DNA of 64,000 bases, taken from an uncultured Gammaproteobacteria bacterium (GTDB lineage Bacteria > Pseudomonadota > Gammaproteobacteria > Eutrophobiales > Eutrophobiaceae). The notes below the pieces were generated by a model, which saw only the letters and a program-made list of their open reading frames with translations, was not told the origin of the DNA and searched no databases. This document shows positions 166 to 63,416 of the stretch, one piece after another (positions within the stretch are counted from its first letter, which is position 1; the number at the start of each line of letters is the position of its first letter). The stretch is taken from the NCBI GenBank assembly GCA_951812995.1, contig CATOTD010000003.1:152825-216824 (forward strand). Direction: 5' to 3'. The translations under genes were made by a program, and so were the position numbers.

Positions 166-300
166 CCTGCTACCTTGCCGCCGACAAGGAAGTCAGCCTC
201 GGTCGCGCCTTTGAGGCGGTCATCATCGCCAGCGTTTTTGGGCTTGGCCAAGCCGACCGACCCCTATATTAAAAAAATAGGCCGCACATCAACCGCCCTA
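166..300 (-). repeat. Conserved 3' flank of giant gene 1 (identical copy downstream of gene 2 at 44707..44840)
   Basis: About 135 bp, gccgccgacaaggaagtcagcctcggtcgcgcctttgaggcggtcatcatcgccagcgtttttgggcttggccaagccgaccgacccctatattaaaaaaataggccgcacatcaaccgcc, virtually identical at both loci. It contains the palindrome ggcttggccaagcc. It is non-coding (the best ORF is 18 aa). Confidence 0.7.
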
Positions 301-24300: not shown

Positions 24301-27300
24301 AGCACGGGTGGTAATGACTGTATTGCCACTGCCATCATCAGCCGTTGCATCGAGTACAGCTTGAAAATTGCTAAAGCCAGCAATGGCGGATAAGTCGATT
24401 TTATCGGTGCCGCTTACAAAGTCAGCAATCGTGTCTGCGCCATGATCGGGGGTAAAGACAAAAGTATCGGCACCGGCGCCGCCGGTTAAGGTATTTGCCT
24501 TTGCATCGCCGACCAGCACATCGCCCTGCGCCGAGCCAACCAGGTTTTCGATATGGGTGAGTGTATCGCCTGCGGCATCGCTCCCAACTTGTGCGCCGGC
24601 CTTGTTCAAATTGACATAGACGCCGGTCACGCCAGTGACGCGGGTAACCAGCCCATGGGCTACATCCGCCGCCACATCGTAGCTCGCCACTGCTCCCGCC
24701 GCCGCATACGAGGCGGTATCCATGCCATCGCCGCCATCCATAGTATCGGCACCCGCGCCGCCGTCTAAAGTATCATCACCCACGCCGCCATCAAGCGTAT
24801 CATCGTCATCGCCGCCGTCTAAAGTGTCATCACCGGCGCCGCCGGTTAAGGTATCAGCACCGCCGCCGCCGCTAAGGTAATCATCACCCGCGCCGCCGTC
24901 TAAGCGGTTGGCATTGACATCACCGACCAGCACATCGTTATGCGCCGAGCCAATCAGGTTTTCAATACTGGCGAGTCTATCGCCCGCGGCCTCGCTACCG
25001 ACTTGTCCGCCGTTCTTGTTCAAATTGACATACACACCAGTCACGCCCGTGACTTGGGCCGCCAGCCCATTGCCTGCATCTGCCGCCACGTCATACGGCG
25101 CAACCGCGCCTGCTGCCGCATACGAGGCGGTATCGGTACCTCCGCCGCCGCGTAAACCATCGGCACCCGCGCCGCCGATGAGCGTGTCATTATCCCCCTC
25201 GCCGTTAAGCGTATCGTTACCCACGCCACCGATTAAGGTGTCATCGCCCGTACCGCCATTTAGCGTATCCGCGCCATCGCCGCCATCTAGCACGTCATTG
25301 CCCGTACCGCCATTTAGCGCGTCTATGCCTGCGCCGCCATCTAGCACGTCATTCCCATCCTCGCCATACAGACTGTCATGGCCATCACCACCAGTTAAGG
25401 TGTCAGCCCCCGCATCACCGCTAAGCTGGTCATTGCCCGCACCGCCATCTAGCACGTCATTGCCCGCGCCGCCATACAGCACGTCAATGCCTGCGCCGCC
25501 ATACAGCCGATTGACCTCAGCATCACCGACCAGTACATCGTTATAGTCTGAGCCAATCAGGTTTTCGATATTGGAGAGCACATCGCCCTGCGCATCAGTC
25601 GCCGCGGTGTTGGTCGCATCGGTGGTCTGTGCGCCGACTTTGTGTAGGTTGACATAGACGCCGGTCACACCCGTGACGCGACTTGCCAGCCCGTTGTCTG
25701 CATCTGCCGCCACGGTATACGCCGCCACTGCCGCCGCACCCGCATACGAGGCGGTATCTGTGCCATCGCCGCCATCAATCCTATCGGCCCCCGCGCCGCC
25801 TTCAAGCGTGTCATCACCGGCACCGCCGACCAAGGTATCGATACCCGCGCCGCCAATCAGCGTATCATCACCCGCGCCGCCGCTTAAGATATCGACACCG
25901 GCACCGCCTTCCAGCCGGTTGGCCTGATCATCGCCGGTCAGAATATCGTGATGCGCCGAGCCGACCAGGTTTTCGATATTGTTTAAGACATCGCCTATCG
26001 CAAAGCCATTGGCGTTATTGGCATTGTCGGATAAATCCACATTCACACCGTCATTGGAGCCGGCATAACTCACGGTATCGACACCGTCTCCGCCATCGAT
26101 ATTATCTATGCTTGCGGTTGCGCTATAGTCATTTGCCTCCGGCCCGCCGACCACGACCACGGCGGCCCTTTGATCCACATTCACAATACGAACTGCGGCG
26201 GTCGATTCCAGACCTTCGTCATCGGTTAGCACAATCGAAAAGGTGCGCTCGCCATCAGTAGCACCCGCGGTATTTCGATAGCGTAGCGCATTGAGGATCA
26301 CCTCGACCTCGATGGTGGTTAAGTTGCCGCCGCCGTTTTTAGTGATTGTGATGGTGTTCTCGGAGGTATCCCAGGCAATATCAATACCGGTTATACCGGC
26401 GATAGTCACGTCATTGGCAGCGACATCGGCCGCGCCACCAATGGCCAGCGTCAGGGCATTACCCATAGCATCACTACCATAGACCAGTTGTTCGTTCGTG
26501 GTATCAAGACCGGTGGTGGTAATAGTAATGGTGGTAATGGTTGCCGGTGGTGAGAGTTCGATCACCTGTACCCCGATATCCCCATAACCCGCGACAAAGG
26601 CATAAGTCTTGCCGCCCACCACCGCGGTGGTGATGTCGTTGGCATTTAAGAGTTGGGTGTAGCCGCCTGCGCCATCGCTAAGTGCGGCGACCGCGCTCGG
26701 ATGCTCAGGGTCGGTAATGTCAATCACCTGCACCCCGTCATCGCCACTAGCGGCGACCAGGGCGTAGGTACGACCGGCAATGACTGTGGTGCTAATAGCA
26801 CGCGCACCACTGAGTTCGGTGTAGGGGCCTCCAGCCACCACGCCGTCATCAAACAATGCCGCGACCGGCTTCGGGGTCGCGGGGGTGGAGATGTCAATAA
26901 TCTGCACCCCGTTATCGCCAGAGGCGGCGACCAGGGCGTAGGTCTTGCCGTCTATCACCACCGTGGTAATGGCCCACGCGCCCCACAGCGCGGTAAAGCC
27001 GTCCGCATTATCGCGGATCGCCGCGACCGGCTTCGGGGCGGCGGGGGTGGAGATGTCGATAATCTGCACGGCGTTGTCAAGGAAACTTGCCACCAGCGCA
27101 TAGGTGGCCTTGCCGATTGTTACCGTGCTAATACCGCGCGCGCCCAGCAGGGCAGTATCGGCGGTATCGGTAATCGCGGCGACCGCCTTCGGGTCGGTGG
27201 GGGTGGAGATGTCGATAATCTGCACCCCGTTATCGCCACTGGCCGCGACCAGGGCGTAGATCGCATTGCCGATTGTCACGGTAGTAATCGCGGTCGCACG

Positions 27301-30300
27301 ACCCAGTGCGCTAAAAGTATTGCCCGCGCTGTCGTTTGTACCATCGCCAATGGCCGCGACCGCGATCGGGTTGGGGTTGGTGACCGGGTCGCTGATGTCA
27401 AGTATCTGCACCCCGTTATCGTTACTGGCGGCAACCAGCGCATAAGTGCTATCGCCGATCTTGACCGTGGTGATGGCTTGCGGGTTGTTCAGCTCCAGCG
27501 CGTTGGTATTGGCGATGCTACCGACCTGGGTGGGGGCGGCGGGGTTATCCACGTTAATAATCTGTACGCTGTTGGTTTCTATGGTGACCAGCAGATAGGT
27601 GCTACCGCCAATCTCCACGGTCGTGACCGCGAGCGGGCCTAGACCTATAGTACCCATCTCAAAAGCGACACCATTGCCATCATTGACCCCATCCTGGATA
27701 GCAAAGGTGGCGGCGGGCGCGATGCTTTGATGATCATTCACGCGCGCGCCGGTGCTGACATCTACCAGGGCAAGGCCGGCGTTTAAGCTCAAGTTATTAG
27801 TCCGCGTGGCCAGACCGAGCATGGTGCTGTCGGCGGGTTTTAAGTCCAGGATTGGGCTGGAGTCAAAATAGCTCAGATTATCGTCGCTAAGCTGGGCTTC
27901 CTGGACACCGATTAAGGTAATGTCGCCGTAAGCGGTGGTAATAACCGTGTTGGCACCAGCATCTGCTGTTGCGCCTTGCACCGCGGCCAGGTTGTTCGCG
28001 CCGATCAAGGCCGAGAGATCAAGGGTATCTTCAGCGGGATTAAAGTCGGTAATGGTGATATCGCCATGGCCGGGTTTGATGATAAAGGTATCGGCCCCAC
28101 CGCCGCCGGTTAAGGTGTCATCACCGCCGCCGCCACCGCTTAAAGTATCTGCGCCTAGCCCGCCTTTGATCACGTTGGCATTACCATCGCCAGTTAGCAC
28201 ATCGTCATGGCCGGAGCCATCGATATTTTCAATACCGGTTAGGATATCGCCCTCGGCATTGCCGCCGGCATTATTGCTATTGTCGGACAAATCCACGGTC
28301 ACACCGGCCGCTGAGGCCGCGTAGCTGACGGTATCAATCCCGGTACCACCGCGCAAGGTATCGCGCCCCGCGCCGCCGACCAAGAAATCATCACCCGCGC
28401 CGCCATCAATCGTGTCATCACCCGCGCCGCCGTCAAGCGTATCTGCGCCATCGCCGCCATCCAGGGTATCATCACCATCGCCGCCGCTAAACAGGTTGGC
28501 ATTGACATCGCCAGTTAAGCTGTCGTCATTGGCGGTACCGATCAGGTTTTCGATATTGCTTAAGACATCACCTGCGGCAAAGCCATTGGCATTATTGGTA
28601 TGGTCGGACAAATCCACAGTTACGCCGTTGCCGTCATCGGCGGTGGCATAACTCACGGTATCCGTGCCGCCTTTGCCATCGATAAAATCGGCGGCGGCGG
28701 TGGCAAAAAATAAATTGGGGGCGCCATCGCCCACTTGCGCGCCTCTGTTGACGTTCACGCTATGGACCGCCGGGGTGGTGGTCGTTAGTCCATCGGCATC
28801 GGTGAGCACAATCGAGAAGGTGCGCTCGCCATTGTTGGCAGTGGCGGCATTGGCGTTTTGATAACGCAGCGCGGCCAGGATCGCCTCGACCTCAATGGTG
28901 GTTAAGTTGCCGCCGCCGTGTTTGGTGAGCGTGATGGTTTTTGCCGCGCGATCCCAGGCTATATCAATACCAGCGACACCGCCGATGCTAAGGTTGCTCG
29001 CGCTGGTATTGGCCGCGCCGATCACTAGCACCTGACCCGCGCCGGTGCCATAGGCCAGTTGTTCATCTCCATCGGCATCTAAGCCAGTCGTGGTAATAGT
29101 AATCGCGCGTATGGTCGCCGAGATGGGCAGTTCGATCACCTGTATGCCAGCATCACCCAGACTCGCGACAAAGGCGTAGAGCTTGCCGCCTATCACCACC
29201 GTAGTAATCCCGGCGGCACCACCCAGTGCGGTGTAGCCGCCTGCGTCATCGCGGAGTGCGGCGACCGCAGTCGGGGCGGCCGGGTCGGTGATGTCGATCA
29301 CCTGTACCCCGTGATCATCGAGGGAGGCGACCAGGGCATAGGTACGACCGGCAATGACTGTGGTCGTGATAACACGCGGGCCATTGAGTTCGGTGTAGCC
29401 ATCGACACCATCGCGGATCGCGGCAACCGGGGTCGGGGTCTCGGGGGTAGAGATGTCAATAATCTGCACCCCGTTATCGCCAGAGGAGGCGACCAGGGCG
29501 TAGGTCTTGCCTTTGATTACCACCGTGGTAATGTCCCGGGCAGCACCCAGTGCGGTAAAGCCGCCTACCCCATCGGTAATCGCCGCGACCGCGCTTGGAG
29601 TCTCGGGCGTAGAGATGTCGATAATCTGCACCCCGCTATCATCGAAGGCGGCAATCAGCGCATAAGTCTTGCCTTTAATCACCACCGTGGTGATGGCCTG
29701 CACACCTTCCAGCTCGGTGTAAGGGGTATTGGCCAGCGCTGTGCTGTCAGTAATCGCCGCGACCGCGAGCGGGGCGCGCGGTGTGGAGATGTCGATAATC
29801 TGCACCCCGTTATCGGTATTGGCGGCAACCAGCGCGTAAGTCTTGCCGCCGATTACCACCGTGGTAATGCTCTGCGCACCTTCCAGTTCGCTGTAGTTGA
29901 CCCGATCGCCTGCGGTCGGATTACTGTCGGGTTGGCCATCACTGGCGGTCGCGATAGCCACAATAGTCGGGGGGTTGGCCGGGTCAGCGTCGGGTCTGAT
30001 CTCTAGTATCTGTACCCCGTTATCACCCAAGGCGGCGATCAGCACGTAAGTCACCCCGCCGATTACTACCGTGGTAATACTCTGCGGGCTACTTAGTTCC
30101 AGAGCGGGGGTATCGGTAAGGCTGGCGATCTGTTTGGCGGCCGCCGGATCGCTCACGTCTATCAACTGTACGCTATTGCCGCCGGACTCAGTAACCAGCA
30201 GATAGGTCTTACCGTTGATAACTACGGTCGTGACCGCGAGCGGGCCAGTAAAACCACCAGCCGTACCCAGCTCAAAACGCTGGACGGGGTCACTGGCATC

Positions 30301-33300
30301 GGCGCGCCCATCGACATAGACGGCGGCGGCGGTTGGGACGGGTTGATTGACATTATCGCCCGCTTGGGTGTTCGCGCCTAAACGAATGCCCGCGGTTAAC
30401 CCCGCGGTGTCGAGTATGCTGTAGGGCGTTTGTAGCGCGAGAGTCGGCGGGATAGCGTAGATAAAATCATCTTCATCCAGGTCATCCTTCAAGACCCCGG
30501 TCAGGGTGATGGTGCCGGTAGGGGTGGTAATCACCGCGTTACCGTTCACATCTCGGGTTGCGCGCTTTACAGCATCCAGATCGGTAAAGCCAGCAATTCT
30601 AAATAAGTATATTTTATCGGTGCCGGTGGTAAAATCGACAATGGTGTCTGCGCCATGACCGGGGGTAAAGGAAAAGGCATCATTACCCATGCCGCCGATT
30701 AAGGTGTCATCACCGGCGCCGCCTTCGAATATGTTGTCATTCCCATCACCAACCAGTACATCGTTATGCGCCGAGCCAATCAGGTTTTCGATGCTGGTGA
30801 GCACATCGCCCTCGGCATCGCTCCCGACTTGTGCGCCGCGCCCCTTGTTCAGGTTGACATACACGCCGGTCACGCCCGTGACTTCGGTCGCCAGCCCGTG
30901 GGCTGCATCCGCCGCTACGATGTACGCCGCACCCGCCGCTACCGCCGCCGTATACGAGACCGTATCTATACCCGCACCGCCGTCAATGGTATCGGCCCCC
31001 GCGCCGCCGTCGAGCGTGTCATTGCCCGCACCGCCGGTTAAGGTGTCATCACCCGCGCCGCCTTCAAGGCGGTTGGCATTGGCATCGCCGGTGAGCGTGT
31101 CGGCGTAGCGTGAGCCGATAAGGTTCTCGATATTGACGAGTACATCGCCCTGGGCATGACCGCCCGCATTATTGGTATTGTCGGATAAATCCACGGTAAC
31201 GCCGACACCGGAGTTGGCATAATGCACGGTATCTATGCCGCCTTGACCATTGAAGTTTTCATGGCCCGCGGTGGCCGTGTAGGGATTATCCTCCGCATCG
31301 CCGATGAAGCTGTGGACGTGATGGGCATTACTGGCGGCAATGGCCGCGCTATTGGTCGCGGCATCATGACCTGCAGCATCTTTGATAGTGCCGCCGCTTA
31401 AGTCGATATTCGCATTGACGGCAATGCCATCGATATCGGTGTCGTCATCGGCGACAGTGTAGCGAAAGACCAGCGTGGTCGTGCCATTGCCGCTGTGATA
31501 ACTGGCCTCGCGGGTGTTGCCGCCAACCTCGACCTCGATAGTTGGCGTGCCGCCCATGGTATCGACCACCACCGCCTCGTTATAGGTCACCGTGATGTCG
31601 ATGTTGTTGCCAGTGATGTAGGTGTTATCAGGGCCGGCAGCGTTCACCGTGGTGGTGGTGATGGTCGGGGCTGTGGTGTCGACCTTGTGCTGGTCATTGT
31701 CTGCCACGGCCGCATGGATAAGGTCGGCAGGGTTACCGGCGACATCTTTGATAGTGCCGCCGCTTAAGCCAAGCGCATCGGCATTGATGCTGATACCATC
31801 GGCATCGGTATCACCGTCTTGTACCTCGTATTGGAACACCAACGCGGTGGCGGTAGAGGAACCGGCTATATAGCTGGCCTGGCGGGTGTTGCCGCCGATA
31901 ACAATTTCTATGGTTGGCGTGCCGGTGACAACGACATCCTCGCTAAAGGTCACCGTTATCTCTATGGTCTCGCCTGCTATGTAAATACCATCACCCGCAT
32001 CAGAGCTAATCGTGGTGCCGGTGATAGTCGGGGCTGTGGTGTCTATGGTCAAGTTAAAGGCATCACTGGGGACGCTGGCGGCGGTGACAATGTCATTGCC
32101 ATCCACCGCCACCACGCGGGCGGTCAAAACCGCATTCCCCTCGGGCAAGGCGGACGGGGTGTAGGTCCAGGCCTGGCCGACCGTTACCGCCGTGCCGAGT
32201 AATACGCCGTTGTTGTATATCTGCACCTCTTGACCGGCGACCAGGGCCGCGGTGATGGTGCCGCTTAAGGTCGGGGTGGCATCGTTGGTGATGTCGTTCG
32301 TGCGTAAAGGTAAAACAACAGGCGGATTTAGCACCACGCCCACCGTCCCCACATTGTCGGTGACGGCGGTAATCTCGGCGGTGGTGCCCAAGGGCGGTAA
32401 TTGCGCATCGACTTGTTTAGTGAGGTCGGGGTCAACGGTTGTATGGGCAAGGGTGGCATCATTACCGGCCGTGTCTTTGATCGTGGCACCGACAGGCAAT
32501 ACAATGTTTCTGGTCGTGATGCTGATGCCATTGTTGTCGGAGTCATTCAATACTACGGTGTAGCTAAAAACCAGTTGGGTGTTGTCAACACTACTACGGA
32601 CATAGTTGGCCTGTTCGTTCGTGCCGCCAATATTGATGAAGATATGCGGCACGCCGACCACTGTGACTGCTTCATTAAAGGTCAGCGTGATTTCAATCGG
32701 CTCACCGGTATTAAAGGTATTACCTACATTTGGACTATTGATGGCAATACCCGTTACCGATGGGGGCGTGGTGTCGACCTTGTGCTGGTCATTGTCTGCC
32801 ACGAGTCCATGGTTGAGGGTGGCAGGGTTACCGGCGATGTCGGTAATCGTGCTACCACCGCTTAAGCTAAGCGCATTGGCATTGATACTAATACCGTCCG
32901 CATCGTTATCACCGGCTTGTACCTCGTATTGGAAGGTCAGCACTCTGCCGCCCGTGCCACTGTGATAACTGGCCTGGACGGTGTTGCCGCCGATGACGAT
33001 GCCTATGGTTGGCGTGCCGGTTACAACGACATCCTCGCTAAAGGTCACCGTTATCCTAATAAAATCGCCTGCTATGTAAATGTCATCACCCGCATCAGAG
33101 CTAATCGTTGGCACACCCGTGATAGTCGGGGCCGTGGTGTCGACCTTGTGCTGGTCATTGTCTGCCACGAGTCCATGGGCAAGGGTGGCCGGGTTACCGG
33201 CGATGTCGGTAATCGTGCTACCACCGCTTAAGCTAAGCGCATCGGCATTGATGCTGATACCATCGGCATCGGTATCACCGGCTTGTACCTCGTATTGGAA

Positions 33301-36300
33301 CACCAACGCGGTGGCGGTAGAGGAACCGGCTATATAGCTGGCCTGGCGGGTCACACCACCAATGCGAATACCTATTGATGGCGTACCGGTGACAACGACA
33401 TCCTCGCTAAAGGTCACCGTTATCCTAATAAAATCGCCTGCTATGTAAGTATTATCAGGACCCGCATCAGAGCTAATCTCCATGGTGGTGACGGTGGGGG
33501 CCGTGGTGTCGACCCGATGGGCGTTATTGTCTGCCACGAGTCCATGGGCAAGGGTGGCAGGGTTACCGGCGGCATCTTTGATGGTGCCACCGCTTAAGCT
33601 AAGCGCATCGGCATTGATGCTGATACCATCGGCATCGGTATCACCGTCTTGTACCTCGTATTGGAACACCAACGCGGTGGCGGTAGAGGAACCAGCTATA
33701 TAGCTCGCCTGGCGGGTGTTGCCGCCGATGACGATGCCTATGGTTGGCGTGCCGGTGACAACGACATCCTCGTTAAAGGTTACCGTTATCTCTATGGTCT
33801 CGCCTGCTATGTAAGTATTATCCGTACCCGCATCAGAGCTAATCGTTGGCGCACCCGCGATAGTCGGGGCTGTGGTGTCTATGGTCAAGTTAAAGGCCGC
33901 ACTGGGGACGCCGATTGCGGTTAAAGCGCCATCGCCATCCACCGCCACCACTTGGGCGCGAAAACTCGGTGTCGCACCATCGGCAAGCGCGCTTGTCAGT
34001 GTATACGTCCAGACCATGCTGGCACCCAGGGTGGCCGCATCGATCGTGTGCAACAAGGTAGCACCATTGTATATCCGTATGACTTCATTGGCTTCCAGCG
34101 ATGCACTGATGGTGCCGCTTAAGGTCGGGGTGGCATCGTTGGTGATGTCGTTCGTGCGTAAAGGTAAAACAACAGGTGGGTTTAGCACCACGCCCACCGT
34201 CCCCACATTGTCGGTGACGGCGGTAATCTCGGCGGTGGTGCCCAAGGGCGGTAATTGCGCATCGACTTGTTTAGTGAGGTCGGCAGCAACGGTTGTATGG
34301 GCAAGGGTGGCATCATTACCGGCCGTGTCTTTGATCGTGGCACCGTTTAATACAATGTCGGTGGTCGTGATGCTGATGCCATTGTTGTCGGAGTCATTCA
34401 ATACTACGGTGTAGCTAAAAACCAGTTGGGTGGTGCCATTGCCACTTTCATAGTCGGCCTGTTTGTTCGTGCCGCCAATATTGATGAAAATATGCGGCAC
34501 GCCGACCACTGTGACTGCTTCATTAAAGGTCAGCGTGATTTCAATCGGCTCACCGGTATTAAAGGTATTACCTACATTTGGACTATTGATGGCAATACCC
34601 GTTACCGATGGGGGCGTGGTGTCGACCTTGTGCTGGTCATTGTCTGCCACGAGTCCATGGTTGAGGGTGGCAGGGTTACCGGCGGCATCTTTGATGGTGC
34701 CACCGCTTAAGCTAAGCGCATCGGCATTGATACTGATACCGCCCGCATCGTTATCACCGTCTTGTACCTCGTATTGGAAGGTCAGCACTCTGCCGCCCGT
34801 GCCACTGTGATAACTGGCCAGCTTGGGAGCACCGCCGCCGATGACGATGCCTATGGTTGGCGTGCCGGTTACAACGACATTCTCGCTAAAGGTCACCGTT
34901 ATCCTAATAAAATCGCCTGCTATGTAAATGTCATCACCCGCATCAGAGCTAATCGCTGGCACACCCGTGATAGTCGGGGCCGTGGTGTCTACGCGGTGGG
35001 CGTTATTGTCTGCCACGAGTCCATGGGCAAGGGTGGCCGGGTTACCGGCGATGTCGGTAATCGTGCTACCACCGCTTAAGCTAAGCGCATCGGCATTGAT
35101 GCTGATACCATCGGCATCGGTATCACCGGCTTGTACCTCGTATTGGAACACCAACGCGGTGGCGGTAGAGGAACCGGCTATATAGCTGGCCTGGCGGGTC
35201 ACACCACCAATGCGAATACCTATTGATGGCGTGCCGGTGACAACAACATCCTCGCTAAAGGTCACCGTTATCCTAATAAAATCGCCTGCTATGTAAGTAT
35301 CATCTGCACCCGCATCAGAGCTAATCGCTGGTACACCCGTGATAGTCGGGGGCGTGGTGTCGACCCGATGGGCGTTATTGTCTGCCACGAGTCCATGGGT
35401 GAGGGTGGCAGGGTTACCGGCGGCATCTTTGATGGTGCCACCGCTTAAGCTAAGCGCATCGGCATTGATGCTGATACCATCGGCATCGGTATCACCGTCT
35501 TGTACCTCGTATTGGAACACCAACGCGGTGGCGGTAGAGGAACCGGCTATATAGCTGGCCTGGACGGTGTTGCCGCCGATGACGATGCCGATGGTTGGCG
35601 TGCCGGTGACAACAACATCCTCGCTAAAGGTCACCGTTATCCTAATAAAATCGCCTGCTATGTAAGTATTATCACCACCCGCATCAGAGCTAATCGCTGG
35701 CACACCCGTGATAGTCGGGGCTGTGGTGTCTATGGTCAAGTTAAAGGCCGCACTGGGGACGCCGATTGCGGTTAAAGCGCCATCGCCATCCACCGCCACC
35801 ACTTGGGCGGTAAAACTCGGTGTCGCACCATCGGGCAAGGCGGACGGGGTGTACGTCCAGGCCATGCTGGCACCCAGGGTGGCCGCATCGATCGTGTGCA
35901 ACAAGGTAACACCATTGTATATCCGTATGACTTCATTGGCTTCCAGCAATGTACTGATGGTGCCGCTTAAGGTCGGGGTGGTGTCGTTAGTGGTATTGCC
36001 GCTGACCAAGTCGTCTTGCACGGGGTCAACATTATCCTCGGCAGCATCTATGGTGACGGTGGTGTTCAGTCGCGGTAATTGCGCATCGACCTGTTTATTG
36101 GAGTCGGCAGCAACGGTTGTATGGGCAAGGGTGGCATCATTACCGGCGGTATCTTTGATTGTGGCACCGTTTAATACAATGTCGGTGGTCGTGATGCTGA
36201 TGCCATTGTCATCCTTGTCGCCGACCACGGGGCTGTAGCTAAAAACCAGTTGGGTGGTGCCATTGCCACTTTCATAGTCGGCCTGTTTGTTCGTGCCGCC

Positions 36301-39300
36301 AATATTGATGAAGATATGCGGCACACCGACCACTGTGACTGCTTCATTAAAGGTAAGCGTGATTTCAATCGGCTCACCGGTATTAAAGGTATTACCTACA
36401 TTTGGACTATTGATGGCAATACCATCTCTATTGACCGATGGGGCCGTGGTGTCGACCTGGTGGGTATTACTGTCTGCCACGAGTCCATGGGCAAGGGTGG
36501 CAGGGTTACCGGCGATGTCGGTAATCGTGCTACCACCGCTTAAGCTAAGCGCATTGGCATTGATACTAATACCGCCCGCATCGGTATCACCGTCTTGTAC
36601 CTCGTATTGGAAGGTCAGCACTCTGCCGCCCGTGCCACTGTGATAACTGGCCAGCTTGGGAGCACCGCCGCCGATGACGATGCCTATGGTTGGCGTGCCG
36701 GTTACAACGACATTCTCGCTAAAGGTCACCGTTATCCTAATAAAATCGCCTGCTATGTAAATGTCATCACCCGCATCAGAGCTAATCGCTGGCACACCCG
36801 TGATAGTCGGGGCCGTGGTGTCTACGCGGTGGGCGTTATTGTCTGCCACGAGTCCATGGGCAAGGGTGGCCGGGTTACCGGCGATGTCGGTAATCGTGCT
36901 ACCACCGCTTAAGCTAAGCGCATCGGCATTGATGCTGATACCATCGGCATCGGTATCACCGGCTTGTACCTCGTATTGGAACACCAACGCGGTGGCGGTA
37001 GAGGAACCGGCTATATAGCTGGCCTGGCGGGTCACACCACCAATGCGAATACCTATTGATGGCGTGCCGGTGACAACAACATCCTCGCTAAAGGTCACCG
37101 TTATCCTAATAAAATCGCCTGCTATGTAAGTATCATCTGCACCCGCATCAGAGCTAATCGCTGGTACACCCGTGATAGTCGGGGGCGTGGTGTCGACCCG
37201 ATGGGCGTTATTGTCTGCCACGAGTCCATGGGTGAGGGTGGCAGGGTTACCGGCGGCATCTTTGATGGTGCCACCGCTTAAGCTAAGCGCATCGGCATTG
37301 ATGCTGATACCATCGGCATCGGTATCACCGTCTTGTACCTCGTATTGGAACACCAACGCGGTGGCGGTAGAGGAACCGGCTATATAGCTGGCCTGGACGG
37401 TGTTGCCGCCGATGACGATGCCGATGGTTGGCGTGCCGGTGACAACAACATCCTCGCTAAAGGTCACCGTTATCCTAATAAAATCGCCTGCTATGTAAGT
37501 ATTATCACCACCCGCATCAGAGCTAATCGCTGGCACACCCGTGATAGTCGGGGCTGTGGTGTCTATGGTCAAGTTAAAGGCCGCACTGGGGACGCCGATT
37601 GCGGTTAAAGCGCCATCGCCATCCACCGCCACCACTTGGGCGGTAAAACTCGGTGTCGCACCATCGGGCAAGGCGGACGGGGTGTACGTCCAGGCCATGC
37701 TGGCACCCAGGGTGGCCGCATCGATCGTGTGCAACAAGGTAACACCATTGTATATCCGTATGACTTCATTGGCTTCCAGCAATGTACTGATGGTGCCGCT
37801 TAAGGTCGGGGTGGTGTCGTTAGTGGTATTGCCGCTGACCAAGTCGTCTTGCACGGGGTCAACATTATCCTCGGCAGCATCTATGGTGACGGTGGTGTTC
37901 AGTCGCGGTAATTGCGCATCGACCTGTTTATTGGAGTCGGCAGCAACGGTTGTATGGGCAAGGGTGGCATCATTACCGGCGGTATCTTTGATTGTGGCAC
38001 CGTTTAATACAATGTCGGTGGTCGTGATGCTGATGCCATTGTCATCCTTGTCGCCGACCACGGGGCTGTAGCTAAAAACCAGTTGGGTGGTGCCATTGCC
38101 ACTTTCATAGTCGGCCTGTTTGTTCGTGCCGCCAATATTGATGAAGATATGCGGCACACCGACCACTGTGACTGCTTCATTAAAGGTAAGCGTGATTTCA
38201 ATCGGCTCACCGGTATTAAAGGTATTACCTACATTTGGACTATTGATGGCAATACCCGTTACCGATGGGGGCGTGGTGTCGATGGTGATGGGGGCGGCAT
38301 TGCTGCCGACATCAACCGACCTATTACCGGCCGCATCGGTTTGGCGGACTTGTATATGACCTGCGTTATAGGTGGTGTTGGCGGTGCCAAGGCTGAAGGT
38401 GGTGCCCGTGCCGTCTTGCCAGACGGGCGTGCCATCATTGCCATTGATTGTATATTCCCAGGTCGCACCCGCTTCAAGACCCGTGACCGTGATGGTCGGG
38501 TTGCTGGTGATGCCGTCATCAGCGGCCGTGTCGGTAAAGGTGATCTCCGGGTTATCCGGGGGCGTGGTGTCTATGGTGATGGGGGCGGTGCTGCTGCCCA
38601 CGCCAGATACATTACCCGCCACATCGGTCTGGCGTACCTGTATATCACCTCGCACGTAGGTGGTGTTGGCGGTGCCGAGGCTGAAGGTGTTGCCCGTGCC
38701 GTCTTGCCAGACGGGCGTGCCATCATTGCCATTGATTGTATACTCCCAGGTCGCACCCACTTCAAGACCCGTGACCGTGACAGTCGGGTCGTTGGTGCGG
38801 TTGTCACCTGCTGTGCCTGTGTCGGTAAAGGCGATACCCGGGGGCAAGGCCTCGGTGTCGATGGTGATGACCTGGTCGTATTGATAGATGGACTCATTAC
38901 CGGCCGTGTCGGTTTGTTTTATGCGGATAGTATTGGCGTTATAGGTCTTATTGGCGTTGCCAAGGCTGAAGGTACCGTTGCCGCCTGCACCCACCACACC
39001 GCCACCGGTAAACGTGCCGCCATCGATTGAATACGCCCAGGTCGCACCCACTTCAAGGTTTGCGACATTGATGCTCGGGTTATTGGTGATGCGGTCATCA
39101 TCAGCCGTGCCCGTGTCGCGGGTCAAGGCTACTCTCGGATCATCCGGGGGCGTGGTGTCGATGGTTATGGCTCGGTCGTATGTATAGATGGACTCATTAC
39201 CGGCCGTGTCGGTTTGTTTTATGCGGATAGTATTGGCGTTATAGGTCTTATTGGCGTTGCCAAGGCTGAAGGTACCGTTGCCGCCTGCACCCACCACACC

Positions 39301-42300
39301 GCCACCGGTAAACGCGCCGCCATCGATTGAATACGCCCAGGTCGCACCCACTTCAAGGTTTGCGACATTGATGCTCGGGTTATTGGTGATGCGGTCATCA
39401 TCAGCCGTGCCCGTGTCGCGGGTCAAGGCTACTCTCGGATCATCCGGGGGCGTGGTGTCGATGGTTATGGCTCGGTCGTATGTATAGATGGACTCATTAC
39501 CGGCCGTGTCGGTTTGTTTTATGCGGATAGTATTGGCGTTATAGGTCTTATTGGCGTTGCCAAGGCTGAAGGTACCGTTGCCGCCTGCACCCACCACACC
39601 GCCACCGGTAAACGTGCCGCCATCGATTGAATAGGCCCAGGTCGCACCCACTTCAAGGTTTGCGACATTGATGCTCGGGTTATTGGTGATGCGGTCATCA
39701 TCAGCCGTGCCCGTGTCGCGGGTCAAGGCTACGGTCGGATCATCCGGGGGCGTGGTGTCGATGGTGATGGCCTGGTCGTATGTATAGATGGACTCATTAC
39801 CGGCCGTGTCGGTTTGTTTTATGCGGATAGTATTGGCGTTATAGGTCTTATTGGCGTTGCCAAGGCTGAAGGTACCGTTGCCGCCTGCACCCACCACACC
39901 GCCACCGGTAAACGCGCCGCCATCGATTGAATACGCCCAGGTCGCACCCACTTCAAGGTTTGCGACATTGATGCTCGGGTTATTGGTGATGCGGTCATCA
40001 TCAGCCGTGCCCGTGTCGCGGGTCAAGGCTACTCTCGGATCATCCGGGGGCGTGGTGTCGATGGTTATGGCTCGGTCGTATGTATAGATGGACTCATTAC
40101 CGGCCGTGTCGGTTTGTTTTATGCGGATAGTATTGGCGTTATAGGTCTTATTGGCGTTGCCAAGGCTGAAGGTACCGTTGCCGCCCACTGCTACCGTGCC
40201 GACTTCGGTAAACGTGCCGCCATCGATTGAATAGGCCCAGGTCGCACCCACTTCAAGGTTTGCGACATTGATGCTCGGGTTGCTGGTGATGCGGTCATCA
40301 GCAGCCGTGCCCGTGTCGCGGGTCAAGGCTACGGTCGGATCATCCGGGGGCGTGGTGTCGATGGTTAAGGTAAAGGCATCACTGCGGTCGCCGACTGCGG
40401 TTAAAGCGCCATCGCCATCCACCGCCACCACTTGGGCGCGAAAACTCGGTGTCGCACCATCGGCCAAGGCGGACGGGGTGTACGTCCAGGCTTGGCTACC
40501 GGCGACGGTAATGGTCGCCGTGCCGAGTAATACGCCATTGTTGTATATCCGTACCTCTTGATTAGTGGCGGCATCTAGTGGCGCACTGATGGTGCCGCTT
40601 AAGGTCGGGGTGGTGTCGTTAGTGGTATTGCCGCTGACCAAGTCGTCTTGCACGGGGTCAACATTATCCTCGGCAGCGTCTATGGTGGCGGTGGTGACCA
40701 GTCGCGGTAATTGCGCATCGACTTGTTTAGTGAGGTCGGGGCCAACGGTTGTATGGGCAAGATTGGCATCATTACCGGCCGTGTCTTTGATTGTGGCACC
40801 GTTTAATACAATGTCGGTGGTCGTGATGCTGATGCCATTGTCATCGCTGTCGCCGACCACGGGGCTGTAGCTAAAAACCAGTTGGGTGGTGCCATTGCCA
40901 CTTTCATAGTCGGCCTGTTTGTTCGTGCCGCCAATATTGATGAAGATATGCGGCACACCGACCACTGTGACTGCTTCATTAAAGGTAAGCGTGATTTCAA
41001 TAGGCTCACCGGTATTAAAGGTATTGCCTACATTTGGACTATTGATGGCAATACCATCTCTATTGACCGATGGGGCCGTGGTGTCGATGGTGATGGGGGC
41101 GGCATTGCTACCGACATCGACCGACGTATTACCGACCGCATCGGTCTGGCGGACTTGTATATGACCTTGCGCGTAGGTGTTGTCGTCGGTGCCAAGGCTG
41201 AAGGTGGTGCCCGTGCCATCGTCCCAATTACTGCCGTCATCCGTTGAATACTCCCAGGTCGCACCATCTTCAAGACCCGTGATCGTGATGGTCGGGTTGC
41301 TGGTGATGCCGTCATCAGCGGCCGTGTCGGTAAAGGTGATCTCCGGGTTATCCGGGGGCGTGGTGTCGACCCGATGGGTGTTACTGTCTACTACCGCACC
41401 ATGGGTGAGAGTGGCATTGTTACCCGCGATGTCGGTAATCGTGCCACCGTTTAAGTCAAGATTGCCCCGAACAATACTAATACCGCCCGCATCGTTGTCA
41501 CCGGCTTGTACCTCGTATTGGAATACCAGCTCGGTGGTGCCATTGCCACTTTCATAGCTGGCTTGGCGGGGGTTGCCACCCATGTTGATGCTGATGGTTG
41601 GCGTGCCCGTTACGATGACATCCTCATCAAAAGTTACCGTTATCTTAATAACATCGCCTGCCTTGTAAGTATTATCCGTACCGGCATTAGAGCTAATCGC
41701 TGGCACACCCGTGATAGTCGGTGCCGTGGTGTCTATGGTAATCAACGTGGTCGTGCCCACGCGTGATCTATTACCGGCCGCATCAGTTTGCCGTACCTGT
41801 ATCGCACCCGCTTCGTAGCTGGGGTTGGTTAGCTCAAAGCTCGTACCCGTGCCTGGGTTCCAGTTCGTGCCGCTGTCTGTTGAATACTCCCAAGTGGCAC
41901 CATCTTCAATGTTTCTAACCGTCATCGTCGGATCGGAAGTAATACCATCAGCGATGTTAGTGTCATCGGCCAAGGCCAGACCAGGTGCCGATGGCGCGCG
42001 GGTGTCGATGGTCAAGGTAAAGGTGGCGGGGACACCAAAGGTGTTGCTGTCTGTATTGACTACCTGAACGCGATAGCTGGCAGTCGCACCATGACCCAAG
42101 GCCGGGGTTTGTGTGTATGTCCAGTTCTGACCATCTACGGTGGCCGTGCCGAGTAATACGCCATTGTTGTAAACTTGTACGACTTCATTGGTGGCCAGGT
42201 CTACGCTAATGGTACCGCTTAAGGTCGGGGTGGTGTCATTGGTGGTATTGCCAGTGTCTAAATCCGTTGGGGAAGCAAGTACGTCCGCGGCATTGCTGCC

Positions 42301-44490
42301 AACATTATCCGCAGCTCCTGTAATCTGGACGGTCGTGGTGATCACATCCGCCGTGGTCGTGGTGTCAACCGCCTTAGTCGCATCGGCGGCAACGGCATCA
42401 TGGGTGAGGATGGCAGGGTTACCCGCGATGGTGGTGGCATCATTCCCCGCGATGTCTTGGATGGTGCCGCCGTTTAAGTTAAGACTGTTCTCGGCAATAC
42501 TGATGCCGCCCGGGGTATCATCACCGGTTTGTACCTGGTATTGGAACACCAACGTCTTGCTGCCCGTGCCGCTTTTATAGTCGGCCTGGACGGTATTGCC
42601 GCCGATGACGATGCCTATCCATGGCGTGCCGGTGACAACAACATCCTCACTAAAAGTCACTGTGATGGTGATGACCTCATTCGCCACAAACGCTGTGCCT
42701 GAGGCTGGATTGCTAATGGTCACCGTGCTGATGGTTGGGGGCGTGTCGTCAACAGTCAGTTCAATATCGGGCTCACCATTACCGTCATCATCGGCTATAC
42801 CTGCTTCCTCCGCACCATCCTCCAGACGCTTGGCAGCATCAGGCGACAAGCCCTCTTCAGTTATTTCATCTACCAAGTCTTCCAGGACTTCGCCCGTTGT
42901 TTTTGACTCGCCTCCTCTTACACCCGATTCTACACCCGAAATGGCCGCCAGTGCCTTGCCGTATTCGTTGGCGGCATCGTCACCCGTCGTTGGCTTGCCG
43001 TCTTTATCCACTGTCAGCTTGACCGGGCTCGATACCAGGTCATCAGCATCGGCTGTGTCATCATCACCCGTGATACCAAAGGACTTGGCTACCGCGGCCT
43101 GTTGCGCGACAACGGCTTCGGGAGTGATGTCCGTGATGCTGGTTGCAGAGGCACCGTTATCACCACCGGCAAGACCAACCTTGCGCGTGGCAAGCTCGGT
43201 TAAAGAATTGATGTTGACCGTCTTGGTTGCACCCGCTGCCGGGGCCTGGGTAATCACCCGCAAGTCGCTGGTCAAGTCTTTATCTGCATTCGTTGCTTCG
43301 TCTCGATAGTCGGCGGCGGCATTCTCGTCTACGACCTTAATCAGGATAAGGCCGTCATAGGCGCGGGTGATGGTGACCGTGTAGGTGCCATCATCATTGA
43401 CCTTGGTCGTGCCGAGTGCTGTGCCATCGGCCGCATACACGGTCACTTCCAGACCATGGCCAGCAATCACTGGACCGGCCGTGACAGTGCCGCTTACGGT
43501 AAAGCCGGGGACGGTCTCGGTCTCGGTGGACGTGACGGTTTTGGTAAAACCCTTAGCATCAGTGTAGGTGACGGCAACCCGTAGCTGCTGGCCTTGGTCA
43601 GTACTAGCGACAGTGTAAGTGGCTTGGTCCGCACCCGTGATAGGGTTCCAGGTGTTGCCATTGGTGGAGCGTTGCCATTGATAGCTAAACTCGCCATCCC
43701 CATTGCCATCGGGGTCGTCGGTGGCCGTGGTAGCTGTGAGTTGTTGACCGACTGCCGGGGTGCCGTCTATCGCAAAGGTCGCATCGCCACTATTCCCGGC
43801 CGCTTTACTGCTGTCGCTACTCCCACCGCCCGAGACGGCGAAACCGACCGCACCCAGTAAGGCCACGGCACCCGCTAATCCCGCACTACGATCGAGGCCG
43901 CCATCACTGCTTGTAGTTGCCGTTTCAGCACTTGTGTCGCTGGCTACTGCTTCGGCGGTCGTCTCGGCCACTGCTTCGGTTGTCGTCTCGGCCGTGGCGG
44001 TTGCTTGGGCGGTCGTCTCGGTCGCGGCGGCTTCTTGGGCCGCTGTTGCTGCTACTATCTCTTGGCCAAGTTGCTGATTCAATATATCTTCAAGCTCGCT
44101 GTTGCCTGTAGCCAATGCCAGCAGTGCTTGCAACGCACCTTGGTCATGGGCCTGGGCATAGATAAAGATACTGCCGTCACTCAAGGCCGTACCCTGGGTG
44201 GCGGGGGTGATGACATACTCGCCATTGTCATCTGCGCTGTCTTGATGATGCGGCAAGGCGACCTGGCAGGATGTCGCATCATCAACACAGACCGTGTAGA
44301 AGTCTTCAAGAATGACGACCGTACCATCGGCGTATTGCAGAACCAAGTCGTCACCTTCACGCATGACCAGGACATTGGCCTTGAGCGTGAGATTGTCTAT
44401 ATCGCTGATACGGTACTGATGACCCGCTTCGGTCTGGATGCGGTTGGTATTACCGTTTATGGGGTTGATGATGACGGGTTTAGTTGGCAC
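298..44490 (-). CDS. Giant T1SS-type repetitive adhesin (14,730 aa): Bap-like N-terminal prefix domain, Ig-like domain array, 8 x [RTX beta-roll / T1SS-C-term-like domain / LVIVD beta-propeller / linker domain] supermodules, C-terminal secretion domain
   Basis: Single uninterrupted 44,193-nt ORF on the minus strand. GTG start at 44490 with GGAGA 7 nt upstream, and the N-terminus is parallel to the paralog ([10 protein letters not shown] vs MSSKPVVINP). The N-terminus has a ...[22 protein letters not shown]... motif typical of Bap/LapA-like prefix domains. There are many GGAGxDTLxGG nonapeptides, and repeats of the [20 protein letters not shown] type matching the LVIVD repeat family. The C-terminus ...DRFVLD...[19 protein letters not shown]...NYFAVI* resembles the VCA0849-type T1SS C-terminal domain. 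Stop is TAG at 298-300. Confidence 0.9.
300..31300 (-). repeat. Eight tandem coding supermodules (2.4-4.3 kb each): RTX nonapeptide block(s) + FxF(T/A)PGHGxDTIxDF..KIDLS domain + 7-8-blade LVIVD-type propeller + [14 protein letters not shown] linker domain
   Basis: The [14 protein letters not shown]-containing domain recurs 8 times in the translated protein, at about nt 5630, 8570, 10990, 15240, 19570, 22690, 26300 and 28880. Large near-identical DNA blocks recur, e.g. identical antisense ORFs at 11118..11339 and 19719..19940 (offset 8601 bp). Confidence 0.7.
301..585 (-). other. C-terminal T1SS-type secretion/targeting domain of the 14,730-aa protein (last ~95 aa)
   Basis: [38 protein letters not shown]...[10 protein letters not shown] at the extreme C-terminus. 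The same sequence, ending DYFSVI, closes the paralog (44840..45125). The pattern matches RTX/VCA0849-type uncleaved C-terminal secretion signals. Confidence 0.5.
34752..36420 (-). repeat. Copy A of a perfectly identical ~1.67-kb direct repeat (tandem period 1833 bp, equal to 611 codons)
   Basis: Antisense ORFs 34762..35079, 34928..35185, 35339..35554, 35500..35775, 35708..36238 and 36171..36377 are each letter-for-letter identical to ORFs shifted by exactly +1833 nt. The sequence diverges upstream of about 34750 and downstream of about 36420. Confidence 0.8.
36585..38253 (-). repeat. Copy B of the perfectly identical ~1.67-kb direct repeat
   Basis: Same as copy A, shifted by +1833 nt. A more diverged third copy lies at about 32.6-34.4 kb. 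Confidence 0.8.
38870..40370 (-). repeat. Five tandem 300-bp (100-codon) near-identical coding repeats (Ig-like domain units)
   Basis: Identical 60-aa antisense ORFs at 38919, 39219, 39519 and 39819. The sequence block gatggactcattaccggccgtgtcggtttgttttatgcggatag recurs at 38888, 39188, 39488, 39788 and 40088. Confidence 0.8.
44161..44490 (-). other. N-terminal Bap/LapA-like prefix (retention-type) domain, ~110 aa, conserved between both giant proteins
   Basis: [14 protein letters not shown]...[39 protein letters not shown]... is about 75% identical to residues 1-110 of the paralog (coded at 55040..55372). The DDLVL...DG..V.I.DF(Y/F) pattern is characteristic of prefix domains of T1SS giant adhesins, as far as I recall. 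Confidence 0.45.
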
Positions 44491-44706: not shown

Positions 44707-44840
44707 CTATCTGCCAGCCGCCGACAAGGAAGTCAGCCTCGGTCGCGCCTTTGAGGCGGTCATCATCGCCAGCGTTTTTGGGCTTGGCCAAGCCGACCGA
44801 CCCCTATATTAAAAAATAGGCCGCACATCAACCGCCTTAA
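44707..44840 (-). repeat. Conserved 3' flank of giant gene 2 (copy of 166..300)
   Basis: See the 166..300 feature. It is preceded by a ccttgcta x3 direct repeat at about 44688..44712. Confidence 0.7.
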
Positions 44841-47800
44841 ATCACCGAAAAATAATCGGTGAAAGTGGCATCGCTTATCAGCGTATGATCGATGTTTTGG
44901 ATAGTCATGTAGACCAAGGTGTGATCGTCTGCGCTGACGATATTGGCATGGTCACCGTTATCTGCCACCGCCAGATTCAGGGCGGCCAAGGTGTTCTCAA
45001 GGCCAGTCACGGTATCTATTTGAATGCGGTCGTTCTGGCCCGTGTTAAAGTCGGTGATGATGTCGGTATCTGCGGCCAGCGCATTGGTATCCAGTACAAA
45101 CCTATCCGCACCCGCACCGCCGGTTAAGGTGTCGATGCCCGCACCGCCTTCGAGGCGGTTGGCATTCGCATCGCCGGTTAAGGTGTCGGCTTGGGCGGAG
45201 CCGATGAGGTTTTCGATGTTGAGCAAGACATCGTCCGCCGCCCAGCCCTTGGCGTTCTGCGTATTGTCGGACAAGTCTACCGTGACACCAGCATCAGACT
45301 GGTCATAGCTCACGGTATCTACACCGCCCTTACCATCGATAAGGTCGGCGTTAGCGGTGGCGGCGTAGCTAAGACCAGCATCATCGCCAATAGTCGCGCC
45401 GCTATTGAAGTTCACGCTGTGTACCACTGCGGTGGAGGGGTTACCGTCAAGGTCGGTGAGCACGATCGAAAATTCGCGCACGCGGTCGGTGGCATCCGCC
45501 ACATTGGTATTGTCATAGCGCAAGGCGGCGAGGATGGCTTCAACCTCTATGGTCGTGAGTTCGCTGTTGTCGGTCTTGGTTACGGTAATGGTGTCGTCGG
45601 CATCCACCCAGGCAATATCGATGCCGGTGATACCGGCAATCGTGACATCGCTCAAGCTGGCATCGTTACCGCCGATGGCGAGGGTCAGGTCCACGCCCAT
45701 GGCATTGCTACCATAGACCAGTTGTTCGTTGCTGTTATCCAGTCCCGTTGCGGTAATGGTGATGGTGCTAATCGTAGGAAATAGCGGCAGTTCAATGACC
45801 TGTACGCTGTCATCATTATAGGCACTGACCAGGGCGTAGGCACGGCCGTCGATGACCGTGGTGGTGATGTCCTCTGCACCATCCAATAAGGTGTTGGCAT
45901 CCGCATTAGTAATCGTGCCTGCGGGCGTGGGCTTTTTCGGATCGGAGATGTCGATGATCTGTACCCCGTCATCAACGTAGGCGGCGACCAGGGCGTAGGT
46001 CTTGCCGGCTATCATCACCGTGGTGATGGCACGGGCACCATTCAATGCGGTAAATGGGCTATTCGCGTCCTGGTTATCATCGACAATCGCGGCCGTGGGC
46101 GTGGGCTTGTGCGGGTTGGAGATGTCGATGATCTGTACCCCATCATCCCAATAGGCGGCGACCAGGGCGTAGGTTTTGTCGGCTATCACCACCGTGGTGA
46201 TGGCGATTGCGCCATCCAGGGCAGTGTAGGGTGTATTAGCATCCGCTGTGCTGTCAGTTATCGCGGCAACATGACTAGGGGCCGCAGGCGTTGTGATGTT
46301 GATAATCTGTACCCCGTTATCACCATAGGCAGCAACCAGCGCGTAGGTCTTGCCACCCACCACCACCGTGGTGATGGCGGTTGCGCCATTCAGTGTGGTG
46401 TAGGGGCTATCGGCATCTTTATTGTTGTCGACAATGGCCGCCGTGGCCGTGGGCATGGCGGGGTCGGAGATGTCGATAATCTGTACCCCGTCATCCCAAT
46501 AGGCGGCGACCAGGGCGTAGGTCGCATCGCCAATATTCACCGTGGTGATGCCCTGGGCACCATCCAGGGCGGTGAATGTAGCCCCATCGGTGATGGCGAC
46601 CGTGGGCTTGGGCTTGTTCGGGTTGCTAATGTCGATAATCTGTACCCCGTCATCGCCATCGGCGGCGACTAGCGCGTAGGTGCTAACACCGATCTTCACC
46701 GTGGTGATTGCATATGGGCTAACCAGTGCGACTGCGGTCTCGTCATCATCATCATCGCTAATCGAGGCCGTGGGTGTGGGCATGGCTGGTTTGGAGATGT
46801 TGAGTATCTGTACCTCGTCAAAAATCCAGGAAGTGACCAGGGCGTAGGGAATGCCGCCGATGACCACCGTGGTGATGGACTCTGGATTACTCAGCTTGAT
46901 GTCGCCACCATTGTTTTCAATATTACCCCTCGCCACCAGGGCCTGTAAGGCAACATCATCGCCCGCCGTGGCCTTAGCTCCCAAGGCCACACCTGCGGTC
47001 AGTGCCGCATCGTCGAGTATGCTGTAGGTGGTTTTAAGTGCCAGGGACGACGGATCACTGCGTTCAGCGTAGATAAAATGATCGTCCGTCAACGCCCCTT
47101 TCAATATCCCTTCCAGCTTGATGGTGTTGCCTTTGCTGGTGGTAATGACTGTATTGCCATTGCCATCATCAACCGTTGCGTCCTGCACAGCTTTCAGGTT
47201 GGTAAAGCCAGGAATGGCGGAGAGATCTATTTTATTATTACCGGTGGTAAAATCAGTAATGGTGTCCGCGCCGTGACCTGCGGCAAAGACAAAGGTATCA
47301 TCGTCCGCACCGCCCGTTAAGGTGTCATCCCCGGCCCCGCCAGTAAGCGTGTCATCCTCCGCCCCGCTGATAAGCGTGTCATCCCCGGCCCCGCCGTACA
47401 GGGTGTCATTGCCATCGGCGCCGTCGAGCCGATTGACATCCCGATCACCAATAAGCACATCGTTATGCGCCGAACCAATCAGGTTCTCGATGTCGATGAG
47501 CCTATCATCCGTGGCATCCGTGTTGCCAAGGGTCTGTGCCGTGCCTACCTTGTTCAGATTGACATACACGCCAGTCACGCCCGCAACCGCAGTCGCCAGC
47601 CTGTTGACTGCATCCGCCGCCACGATGTACGGCGCAACTTCTGTCGCATTCTCATACGAGGCGGTATCCGTGCCTGCGCCGCCGATAAGTGTGTCATTAC
47701 CCGCGCCACCGATAAACGTGTCATTATCCGCGCCGCCGATAAGCCAGTCATTGCCATCGCCGCCGTTGAGTGTGTCATCGCCCGCATCGCCGAAAAGCAC

Positions 47801-58817: not shown

Positions 58818-59037
58818 GATCGATCACAGATCGACTACACCCGACCACGCTAGCCCTACCACACCCCAACCCATGCCCAGTGGCTGAACATTGAGCTATT
58901 GCCAGATAAAAATATTCAAATGCGGTATTTTGTGCAACGGTCACACGCTGTCTTTTAGCGTTGCGTCATGTCATTGATGTTGCCCGTCTTTTCATTCAAA
59001 ATGGGCGCATCATTTTATTTACTATTTAATCGTACCT

Positions 59038-61040: not shown

Positions 61041-61289
61041 TTTTAAATAGGTAAGAAAATTGCCGAGGCCATGCGCTGTATAATTCGGGTAATCGTTTTA
61101 TTATTTTTGTCCGCTATTATTGCCGCAATCTCGATGTTCCTGGCGCAATTATACAATTTCTGCGGGTCTACTGAATCAAGTATATAAAATCCGATTTATA
61201 ATCATAGGATTTCATAATCATTGACAGCAAGGATGACAAAAAATAATGCTGTAATGATAATCGTAGCCTTGTATGCAAACCCACTCATG

Positions 61290-62919: not shown

Positions 62920-62993
62920 TGGTATGGGAATTATGTATTTAACTTGACAAAATAACTGATTATTTTACTTCTTTTAGTGTGGGTTGAGATAGC

Positions 62994-63365: not shown

Positions 63366-63416
63366 GTACATTTTGTGGTACGATCTGATTCACTTGATGT
63401 GGGAGGATTTTGTTTA

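Follow-up and report, generated by a model that had tools for sequence, protein, structure and literature searches.

An exact 1,672-nucleotide direct repeat in a 44-kb RTX/Ig-like gene of an uncultured gammaproteobacterium and its probable origin by gene conversion

Introduction

Extender regions of giant RTX adhesins can be built of repeats with identical DNA sequences, as in Region II of MpAFP/MpIBP from Marinomonas primoryensis, for which both the risk of recombination and the mis-assembly of the open reading frame (ORF) have been noted (PMC4083281). Modular RTX giants, such as Legionella RtxA and its relatives, the modules of which end in DDxP, are mosaics of several module types reshaped by homologous recombination, with repeat regions that expand and retract among isolates; the same source cites the function of SiiE as dependent on repeat number (PMC7730722). 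Here we describe a stretch of 64,000 nucleotides (nt), hereafter referred to as the window, from an uncultured gammaproteobacterium of the family Eutrophobiaceae (assembly GCA_951812995.1, contig CATOTD010000003.1, positions 152,825 to 216,824, forward strand). Its minus strand carries a gene of about 44 kb for a candidate RTX/immunoglobulin (Ig)-like surface adhesin, and within the coding sequence of this gene two copies of a 1,672-nt sequence are identical to the last letter.

The locus shares with MpAFP/MpIBP the presence of DNA-identical extender repeats, together with the attendant problem of recombination and assembly. The difference from the known cases is one of scale: in MpIBP a single domain of 104 amino acids (aa) occurs approximately 120 times, whereas the homogenised element described here is a 611-aa super-repeat of five domains, found in two identical and two diverged copies. 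With the DDxP proteins the locus has in common a mosaic of several module types in a giant gene reshaped by recombination, but its modules are 118–128 aa long and end in D-T-T-x-P, which sets them outside the DDxP definition; nothing pointed to endonuclease-mediated insertion, for which no targeted search was made. In comparison with concerted evolution by gene conversion, we see no difference in principle.

Results

Two identical copies in frame within the giant ORF

Base-by-base self-comparison of the window revealed one unbroken exact run of 1,672 nt between positions 34752–36423 and 36585–38256, at an offset of 1,833 nt (Table 1). This offset is 3 x 611 nt, or 611 codons, and the first base of each copy falls on codon position 1 of the minus-strand ORF 298..44490, so that the repeat lies in frame inside the coding sequence, as an earlier reading of the bare letters (the sequence-only reading) had proposed. 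The start and period given in that reading (34752–38253, period 1,833 nt) were exact and the end fell 3 nt short of its true position, 38256. In the coding orientation, the two copies are the heads of two successive units, designated U1 and U2. The run is the longest exact repeat of the whole window, the next ones measuring 412, 382 and 353 nt, and chance is excluded as its source, since none of 2,000 shuffles reached 1,672 nt (largest shuffled run, 635 nt).

When U1 and U2 were aligned, all 24 substitutions and nine gap columns were confined to the last ~152 nt, leaving 0 differences over 1,672 nt; judged from the sequence, the identity is very recent, and on this point we agree with the sequence-only reading. 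Its further statement that 611 codons had been duplicated does not hold, as the identical part comprises 557 codons plus 1 nt. Past the end of the tract, inside the last domain of the unit (A4), three mismatches in the next 55 nt give way to a divergence of ~16% with three indels, and there the tail of U2 is of the type found in the third unit, U3. Plus-strand ORFs in the region, which had served the sequence-only reading as markers of the repeat, were considered as genes and rejected, being antisense by-products of the 14,730-codon minus-strand ORF.

The unit and its array

The 611-aa unit (aa 2079–2689) consists of five modules of 118–128 aa in the order A1, B, A2, A3 and A4, and not of three Ig-like domains plus a linker, as first thought. 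Each module ends in DTTAP, DTTPP or DAQLP (a D-T-T-x-P or D-A-Q-L-P linker). A1 is a diverged relative of A2–A4, and the latter three give rise to a DNA period of 369 nt. In an AlphaFold2 model of the unit, based on an alignment of 54 sequences and with a mean predicted local distance difference test (pLDDT) score of 84.6, domains A1, A2, A3 and A4 were all-beta with pLDDT above 90; domain B was modelled with low confidence because the aligned homologues lack it. Domain B alone scored 23 bits against Pfam Big_13 (cut-off 27). The unit is thus predicted to comprise five beta-sandwich domains, four of them modelled with high confidence and the fifth a weak Big_13 match.

Foldseek comparison of the model with the PDB returned only Ig, FN3 and macroglobulin beta-sandwich chains, including MpIBP (5irb_A, template-modelling score TMt 0.47), a likeness at the level of the fold only. 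A sequence search of solved structures with the unit produced a sole match with E = 0.73 and hence no detectable relative, and no NCBIfam family matched the unit. The A-type domains scored 14.3–16.8 bits against Pfam Big_12 (cut-off 27), and their homologues carry the source labels SwmB or Ig-like; their assignment would therefore stand at the level of the predicted fold, with scores below threshold for every curated family.

The array is larger than the two identical copies plus one diverged copy that had been suggested. It comprises four full units, U1–U4, and a partial unit, U0, of which A1 and B are present; a further partial unit is located in a neighbouring paralogous gene for a protein of 3,511 aa (aa 1081–1577, window 50642–52132). 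Between U2 and U3, blocks at 100% identity alternate with blocks at 57–80%. In U4 the first RTX block replaces the last domain. An exact tract of 154 nt is common to U0, U1 and U2, and after U0 comes a distinct array whose domains measure 96–100 aa. On the N-terminal side of U1, at 38854–40367, five 300-nt repeats encoding 100-aa domains are arranged head to tail with 92–99% identity and with exact tracts of up to 412 nt at an offset of 600 nt and of 299 nt at one of 300 nt; they make up a second array, which was homogenised independently.

Tails and mosaic tracts

In the coding orientation, the identical tract starts at the exact start of U1, where the array has its edge. Upstream of U1 lies a domain of another type, the homology of which to the U1 tail is restricted to ~23 nt of imperfectly matching linker. 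The U1 tail itself is composite: its first half is of the U3.A4 type, with 81 nt exact to the U3.A4 tail (32816–32896), the following part is A3-like, with 44 nt that recur exactly in a stretch beginning at 33528, then comes an 'SNTHQ' segment that is unique, and the tail closes with 32 nt that match the junction preceding U0 without a difference (..SVNRD/GIAIN). Across the junction of U1 and U2, the exact match to the junction preceding U0 extends over 56 nt.

In an alignment of all A-domain tails, the U2 tail was found to be of the U3.A4 type, and the first informative site past the identical tract (34751) already has the U3 state in U2. The last 85 nt of this tail lie within a 195-nt tract (34490–34684) exact to 32642–32836 at the U3/U4 junction; the exception to the U3.A4 type is a 70-nt patch (34662–34731) that recurs unchanged in the A2 tails (35400 and 37233). 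No full-length donor at 100% identity was found for the U1 or U2 tail (the best reached 92%), exact matches occurring only as patches of 44–85 nt.

The longest identical runs between other pairs of units measured 228 nt (U2–U3), 228 nt (U1–U3), 110 nt (U3–U4) and 154 nt (U0–U1), each of them reached in 0 of 2,000 shuffles. Exact tracts also connect the giant gene with its paralogue, 11–19 kb away. These inter-gene tracts measure 186 nt (40844–41029 and 51921–52106), 154 nt, 120 nt (41927–42046 and 53202–53321) and 107 nt (32433–32539 and 51817–51923), and indicate that recombination has exchanged sequence from one gene to the other and not only inside each of them.

Origin of the identity

A simple duplication, or a single unequal crossover, predicts an identity tract equal in length to the period, whereas the observed tract is 161 nt short of it (1,672 versus 1,833 nt). 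If U1 and U3 had undergone a duplicating unequal crossover, the middle unit should carry the head of U3 and the tail of U1, but U2 combines a U1-type head with a U3-type tail, the opposite polarity. Because the tract is shorter than the period and the polarity of the hybrid is reversed, conversion is favoured over a fresh duplication of 1,833 nt. Sharp identity boundaries, tracts shorter than the unit, mosaic tracts and exchange between paralogues are marks of gene conversion; for RecA-mediated events, conversion over 1.67 kb or more is long yet unexceptional. At this locus divergence switches abruptly from zero to background within homologous units, the tract is shorter than the unit, the U2 tail groups with U3.A4 and the U2 head with U1, and the mosaic tracts elsewhere in the repeat family are longer than chance would give. 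We consider it probable that U1 and U2 owe their identical heads to one non-reciprocal gene conversion between neighbouring units that already existed, with a tract of 1,672 nt or more.

Three units would have been present before the event, in which intragenic homologous recombination would have copied the head of one unit onto that of its neighbour over at least 1,672 nt, one boundary of the tract being set where homology runs out at the array edge and the other lying inside A4. Such a conversion would be the newest and largest event in a concerted evolution that continues among the units and between the paralogous giant genes; that conversion is continuing is suggested because the mosaic exact tracts among the units are significant. 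The pair would now act as a 1.67-kb perfect direct repeat in which RecA-dependent unequal exchange would shorten or lengthen the protein in frame by exactly 611 residues, equal to five whole domains. The sequence-only reading had likewise seen the pair as a substrate for homologous recombination that changes the length by 611 residues without a frameshift, and an in-frame length change at a RecA hotspot of this kind is plausible.

Several observations weigh against a single conversion tract in an adhesin gene. Neither an orthologue nor a second assembly from which the ancestral number of units and the direction of the event might be read was found in genome, protein and metagenome collections. 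A scan of GTDB species representatives with the unit detected only loci at 36–39% identity, in Paenibacillus and metagenome-assembled genomes (MAGs); the best match in a search of 5.8 billion proteins had ~50% identity, and all matches listed were 1,070 aa or shorter. No match came from two metagenome scans, one for an exact 32-mer and the other for a degenerate codon pattern of 59 nt, or from exact-protein look-ups of the paralogue of 3,511 aa and of genes in the neighbourhood. In the four distant homologous loci the longest exact repeat was 165 nt, which offers no useful baseline. Furthermore, the tails hold short patch conversions (exact tracts of 70, 81 and 85 nt), and a duplication followed by two or three patches could look alike. 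Consensus polishing could have sharpened the perfect identity in part, since multi-mapping short reads might remove a few true differences. As regards the protein, its proposed adhesin role and export by a type I secretion system (T1SS) are not accompanied by T1SS genes in the window, and the score of its N-terminus against the BapA-prefix family is below threshold.

That the full unit of 1,833 nt was freshly duplicated in tandem, with short conversion patches later rewriting ~150 nt of one or both tails, is possible, although we hold it to be rather unlikely. Such a duplication would account for a period of exactly one unit, in frame, and the short exact patches present in both tails (70, 81, 85 and 56 nt) imply that patching does occur in the array; the U3-tail tract and the A2-tail patch would have entered U2, and the patch from the junction preceding U0 would have entered U1, in keeping with the 56-nt match at the U1/U2 junction. 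At least three later events would, however, be required without any point change in 1,672 nt, and the homology flanking a U1-sized duplication amounts to those ~23 imperfect nt. The U2 tail, moreover, is U3-like over nearly its whole length, as in a unit that existed beforehand.

An artefact of assembly or polishing, in which the copies were homogenised by multi-mapping polishing reads or the number of units is wrong owing to a loop through the U1 tail, appears improbable. The sequence-only reading rightly pointed to an assembly hazard: a perfect repeat of 1.67 kb is longer than short reads and inserts, and it is known that assemblies can be broken or confused by the repeats of RTX adhesins (PMC4083281). 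The graph path runs from the preceding domain into the identical head, then n times through the U1 tail back to the head, and leaves through the U2 tail, n being set only by coverage or spanning reads. Four distinct junctions nevertheless surround the identical segment, with the domain preceding U1 and the U1 tail entering it and the U1 tail and U2 tail leaving it; since two different sequences enter and two different sequences leave, at least two copies are real. The sequence alone fixes the copy number at 2 or more, and the true number could be higher. The usual artefact is moreover collapse and not false duplication, and no stop codon interrupts the ORF over its 14,730 codons. A protein recorded on a 417-kb NCBI/ENA contig matches the neighbouring CCA-adding enzyme at 100% identity, and a contig of that length suggests that long reads were assembled.

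As the cause of the identity, selection acting on the protein or on a nucleic-acid element embedded in the gene is untenable and was rejected. Selection on the protein could not keep every synonymous site of 557 codons unchanged when 8% of sites differ in U3, nothing was found in favour of this reading in domains that are structural extender modules, and there is no indication of a structured RNA, a gene on the plus strand or any other feature, the plus-strand ORFs being antisense.

Whether the two heads became identical by conversion or by duplication, the class of mechanism is the same, namely RecA-type homologous recombination among intragenic repeats, which is evidently continuing.

The giant gene and its product

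The 14,730-codon ORF ranks among the larger bacterial ORFs. It starts with GTG, and the N-terminus of its product is homologous to that of the ATG-started paralogue of 3,511 aa. From the N-terminus, the protein consists of a BapA-prefix-like region, a series of about 29 or more beta-sandwich domains (aa ~900–4400), and RTX blocks with LVIVD-type repeats. The D-T-T-x-P linker occurs 29 times, at a spacing of 94–128 aa. The match of the N-terminus to the BapA-prefix family NF033677 is weak (19.6 bits, cut-off 35), and Big_13 matches six stretches of the N-terminal 4,000 aa (E = 1.7e-24). The RTX nonapeptide family PF00353 matches the C-terminal 4,000 aa in 34 stretches (E = 1.6e-163), with E-values of 1e-88 to 1e-178 across the RTX-bearing part, and 175 GGxGxD motifs were counted in the protein. 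It is acidic, rich in Gly, Ala, Thr and Asp, and has 2 Cys among 14,730 residues.

These features resemble adhesins of the LapA/BapA/SiiE type, which likewise have a long Ig-like extender and C-terminal RTX repeats and are acidic and nearly free of Cys. With its RTX repeats and a predicted rod-like, Ig-like extender that includes the five-domain super-repeat, the protein would fit the general design of RTX 'megaprotein' adhesins, and its architecture suggests a surface adhesin of the T1SS type. In LapA/BapA/SiiE-type proteins, however, RTX repeats are confined to the C-terminus, whereas here RTX blocks are scattered over ~10,000 residues (window 298–32000, aa ~4100–14730) instead of forming one C-terminal block. 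They alternate with LVIVD/EPTP-type (beta-propeller-like) repeats with a period of ~160–174 nt. This interleaving of dispersed RTX blocks with LVIVD/EPTP-type repeats is unusual for an RTX adhesin. A second difference from this type is that the LapG dialanine site [TP]AA[GV] is absent from the first 400 aa and that neither lapG nor lapD is found within the window. T1SS genes (ABC transporter, membrane fusion protein and TolC) are likewise absent among the window ORFs, the window containing only 297 nt downstream of the gene, so that such genes could lie shortly beyond its end. Directly past the stop codon at 298, a terminator-like hairpin with a T-run was observed at 280–294 on the minus strand.

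Large internal repeats are present in the RTX/LVIVD part as well, so that higher-order repetition extends beyond the Ig-like region. A 2.25-kb pair (10582–12819 and 19168–21420, offset ~8.6 kb) and a 0.8-kb pair (621–1429 and 3171–3985) are each 95% identical, and a 0.4-kb pair (637–1052 and 18442–18857, offset 17.8 kb) is 98.8% identical.

Surroundings

The paralogous RTX/Ig-like gene lies immediately upstream of the giant gene. Between the two giant genes and the housekeeping genes, remnants of transposases were found at 55892–58753, belonging to the IS5 family (55892–56623), the Mutator family (57171–57476) and the IS3 family/HTH_21 (58086–58753). They are followed by the gene for the CCA-adding enzyme at 59038–60243. 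Apart from the 100% match, the nearest CCA enzymes have at most 83% identity and belong to MAGs of Gammaproteobacteria and Thiotrichaceae. In the relative GCA_025450675.1, the CCA enzyme of which is 83% identical, the block of CCA, UppP and Methyltransf_28 genes is kept; SLT and epimerase genes stand before it, and a giant gene is absent there. The G+C content is 54–61% over the two giant genes (window 1–56000) versus 43–50% in the flanking housekeeping region (56000–64000), a contrast that could result from amino-acid composition (rich in Gly, Ala, Asp and Thr) or from foreign origin.

Table 1 Features of the giant gene and its repeat array (window coordinates)
Feature	Position	Strand	Description	Basis
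Giant ORF	298..44490	-	14,730 codons, GTG start; ~44-kb gene	ORF scan
Paralogous RTX/Ig-like gene	44837..55372	-	3,511 aa; immediately upstream of giant gene	homology
U0 (partial)	40351-41055	-	aa 1146-~1380; A1 + B only	unit alignment
U1	36424-38256	-	aa 2079-2689; 1,833 nt	unit alignment
U2	34600-36423	-	aa 2690-3297; 1,824 nt	unit alignment
U3	32752-34599	-	aa 3298-3913; 1,848 nt; 91.9% nt identity to U2	unit alignment
U4	30988-32751	-	aa 3914-4501; 73.6% nt identity to U3	unit alignment
Identical copy A	36585..38256	-	head of U1, aa 2079-2635 + 1 nt; A1, B, A2, A3 and first ~74 residues of A4	self-comparison
Identical copy B	34752..36423	-	head of U2, aa 2690-3246 + 1 nt; 100% identical to copy A	self-comparison
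U1 tail	36424..36584	-	C-terminal ~54 residues of U1.A4; 161-nt spacer between identical copies	tail alignment
U2 tail	34600..34751	-	~84% identical to U1 tail; U3.A4-type	alignment of all A-domain tails
Domain A1 of U1	37903..38256	-	118 aa; predicted beta-sandwich	AlphaFold2 model
Domain B of U1	37546..37902	-	119 aa; Big_13-like; carries 11-residue motif	Pfam, sub-threshold
Domains A2, A3, A4 of U1	36424..37545	-	123, 123, 128 aa; predicted beta-sandwiches, pLDDT above 90	AlphaFold2

Discussion

The identical pair is an ordinary feature of giant repetitive surface-protein genes, both extender repeats of identical DNA and variation in repeat number being established for RTX adhesins, and as such it opens no new question. 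For practical purposes, the copy number and the exact sequence of the 44-kb gene should not be trusted without spanning long reads, and cloning of the repeat region or its amplification by polymerase chain reaction would be prone to recombination.

It is tempting to see in the homogenised five-domain cassette a contingency locus, at which frequent in-frame gain or loss of 611 residues, together with conversion among the units and between the giant genes, would vary the length and surface of the adhesin in the population, homogenisation itself being favoured for raising the rate of switching; we regard this as doubtful. What the locus would provide is a clean and datable case of concerted evolution, one that acts at the level of a five-domain super-repeat and reaches the neighbouring paralogue.

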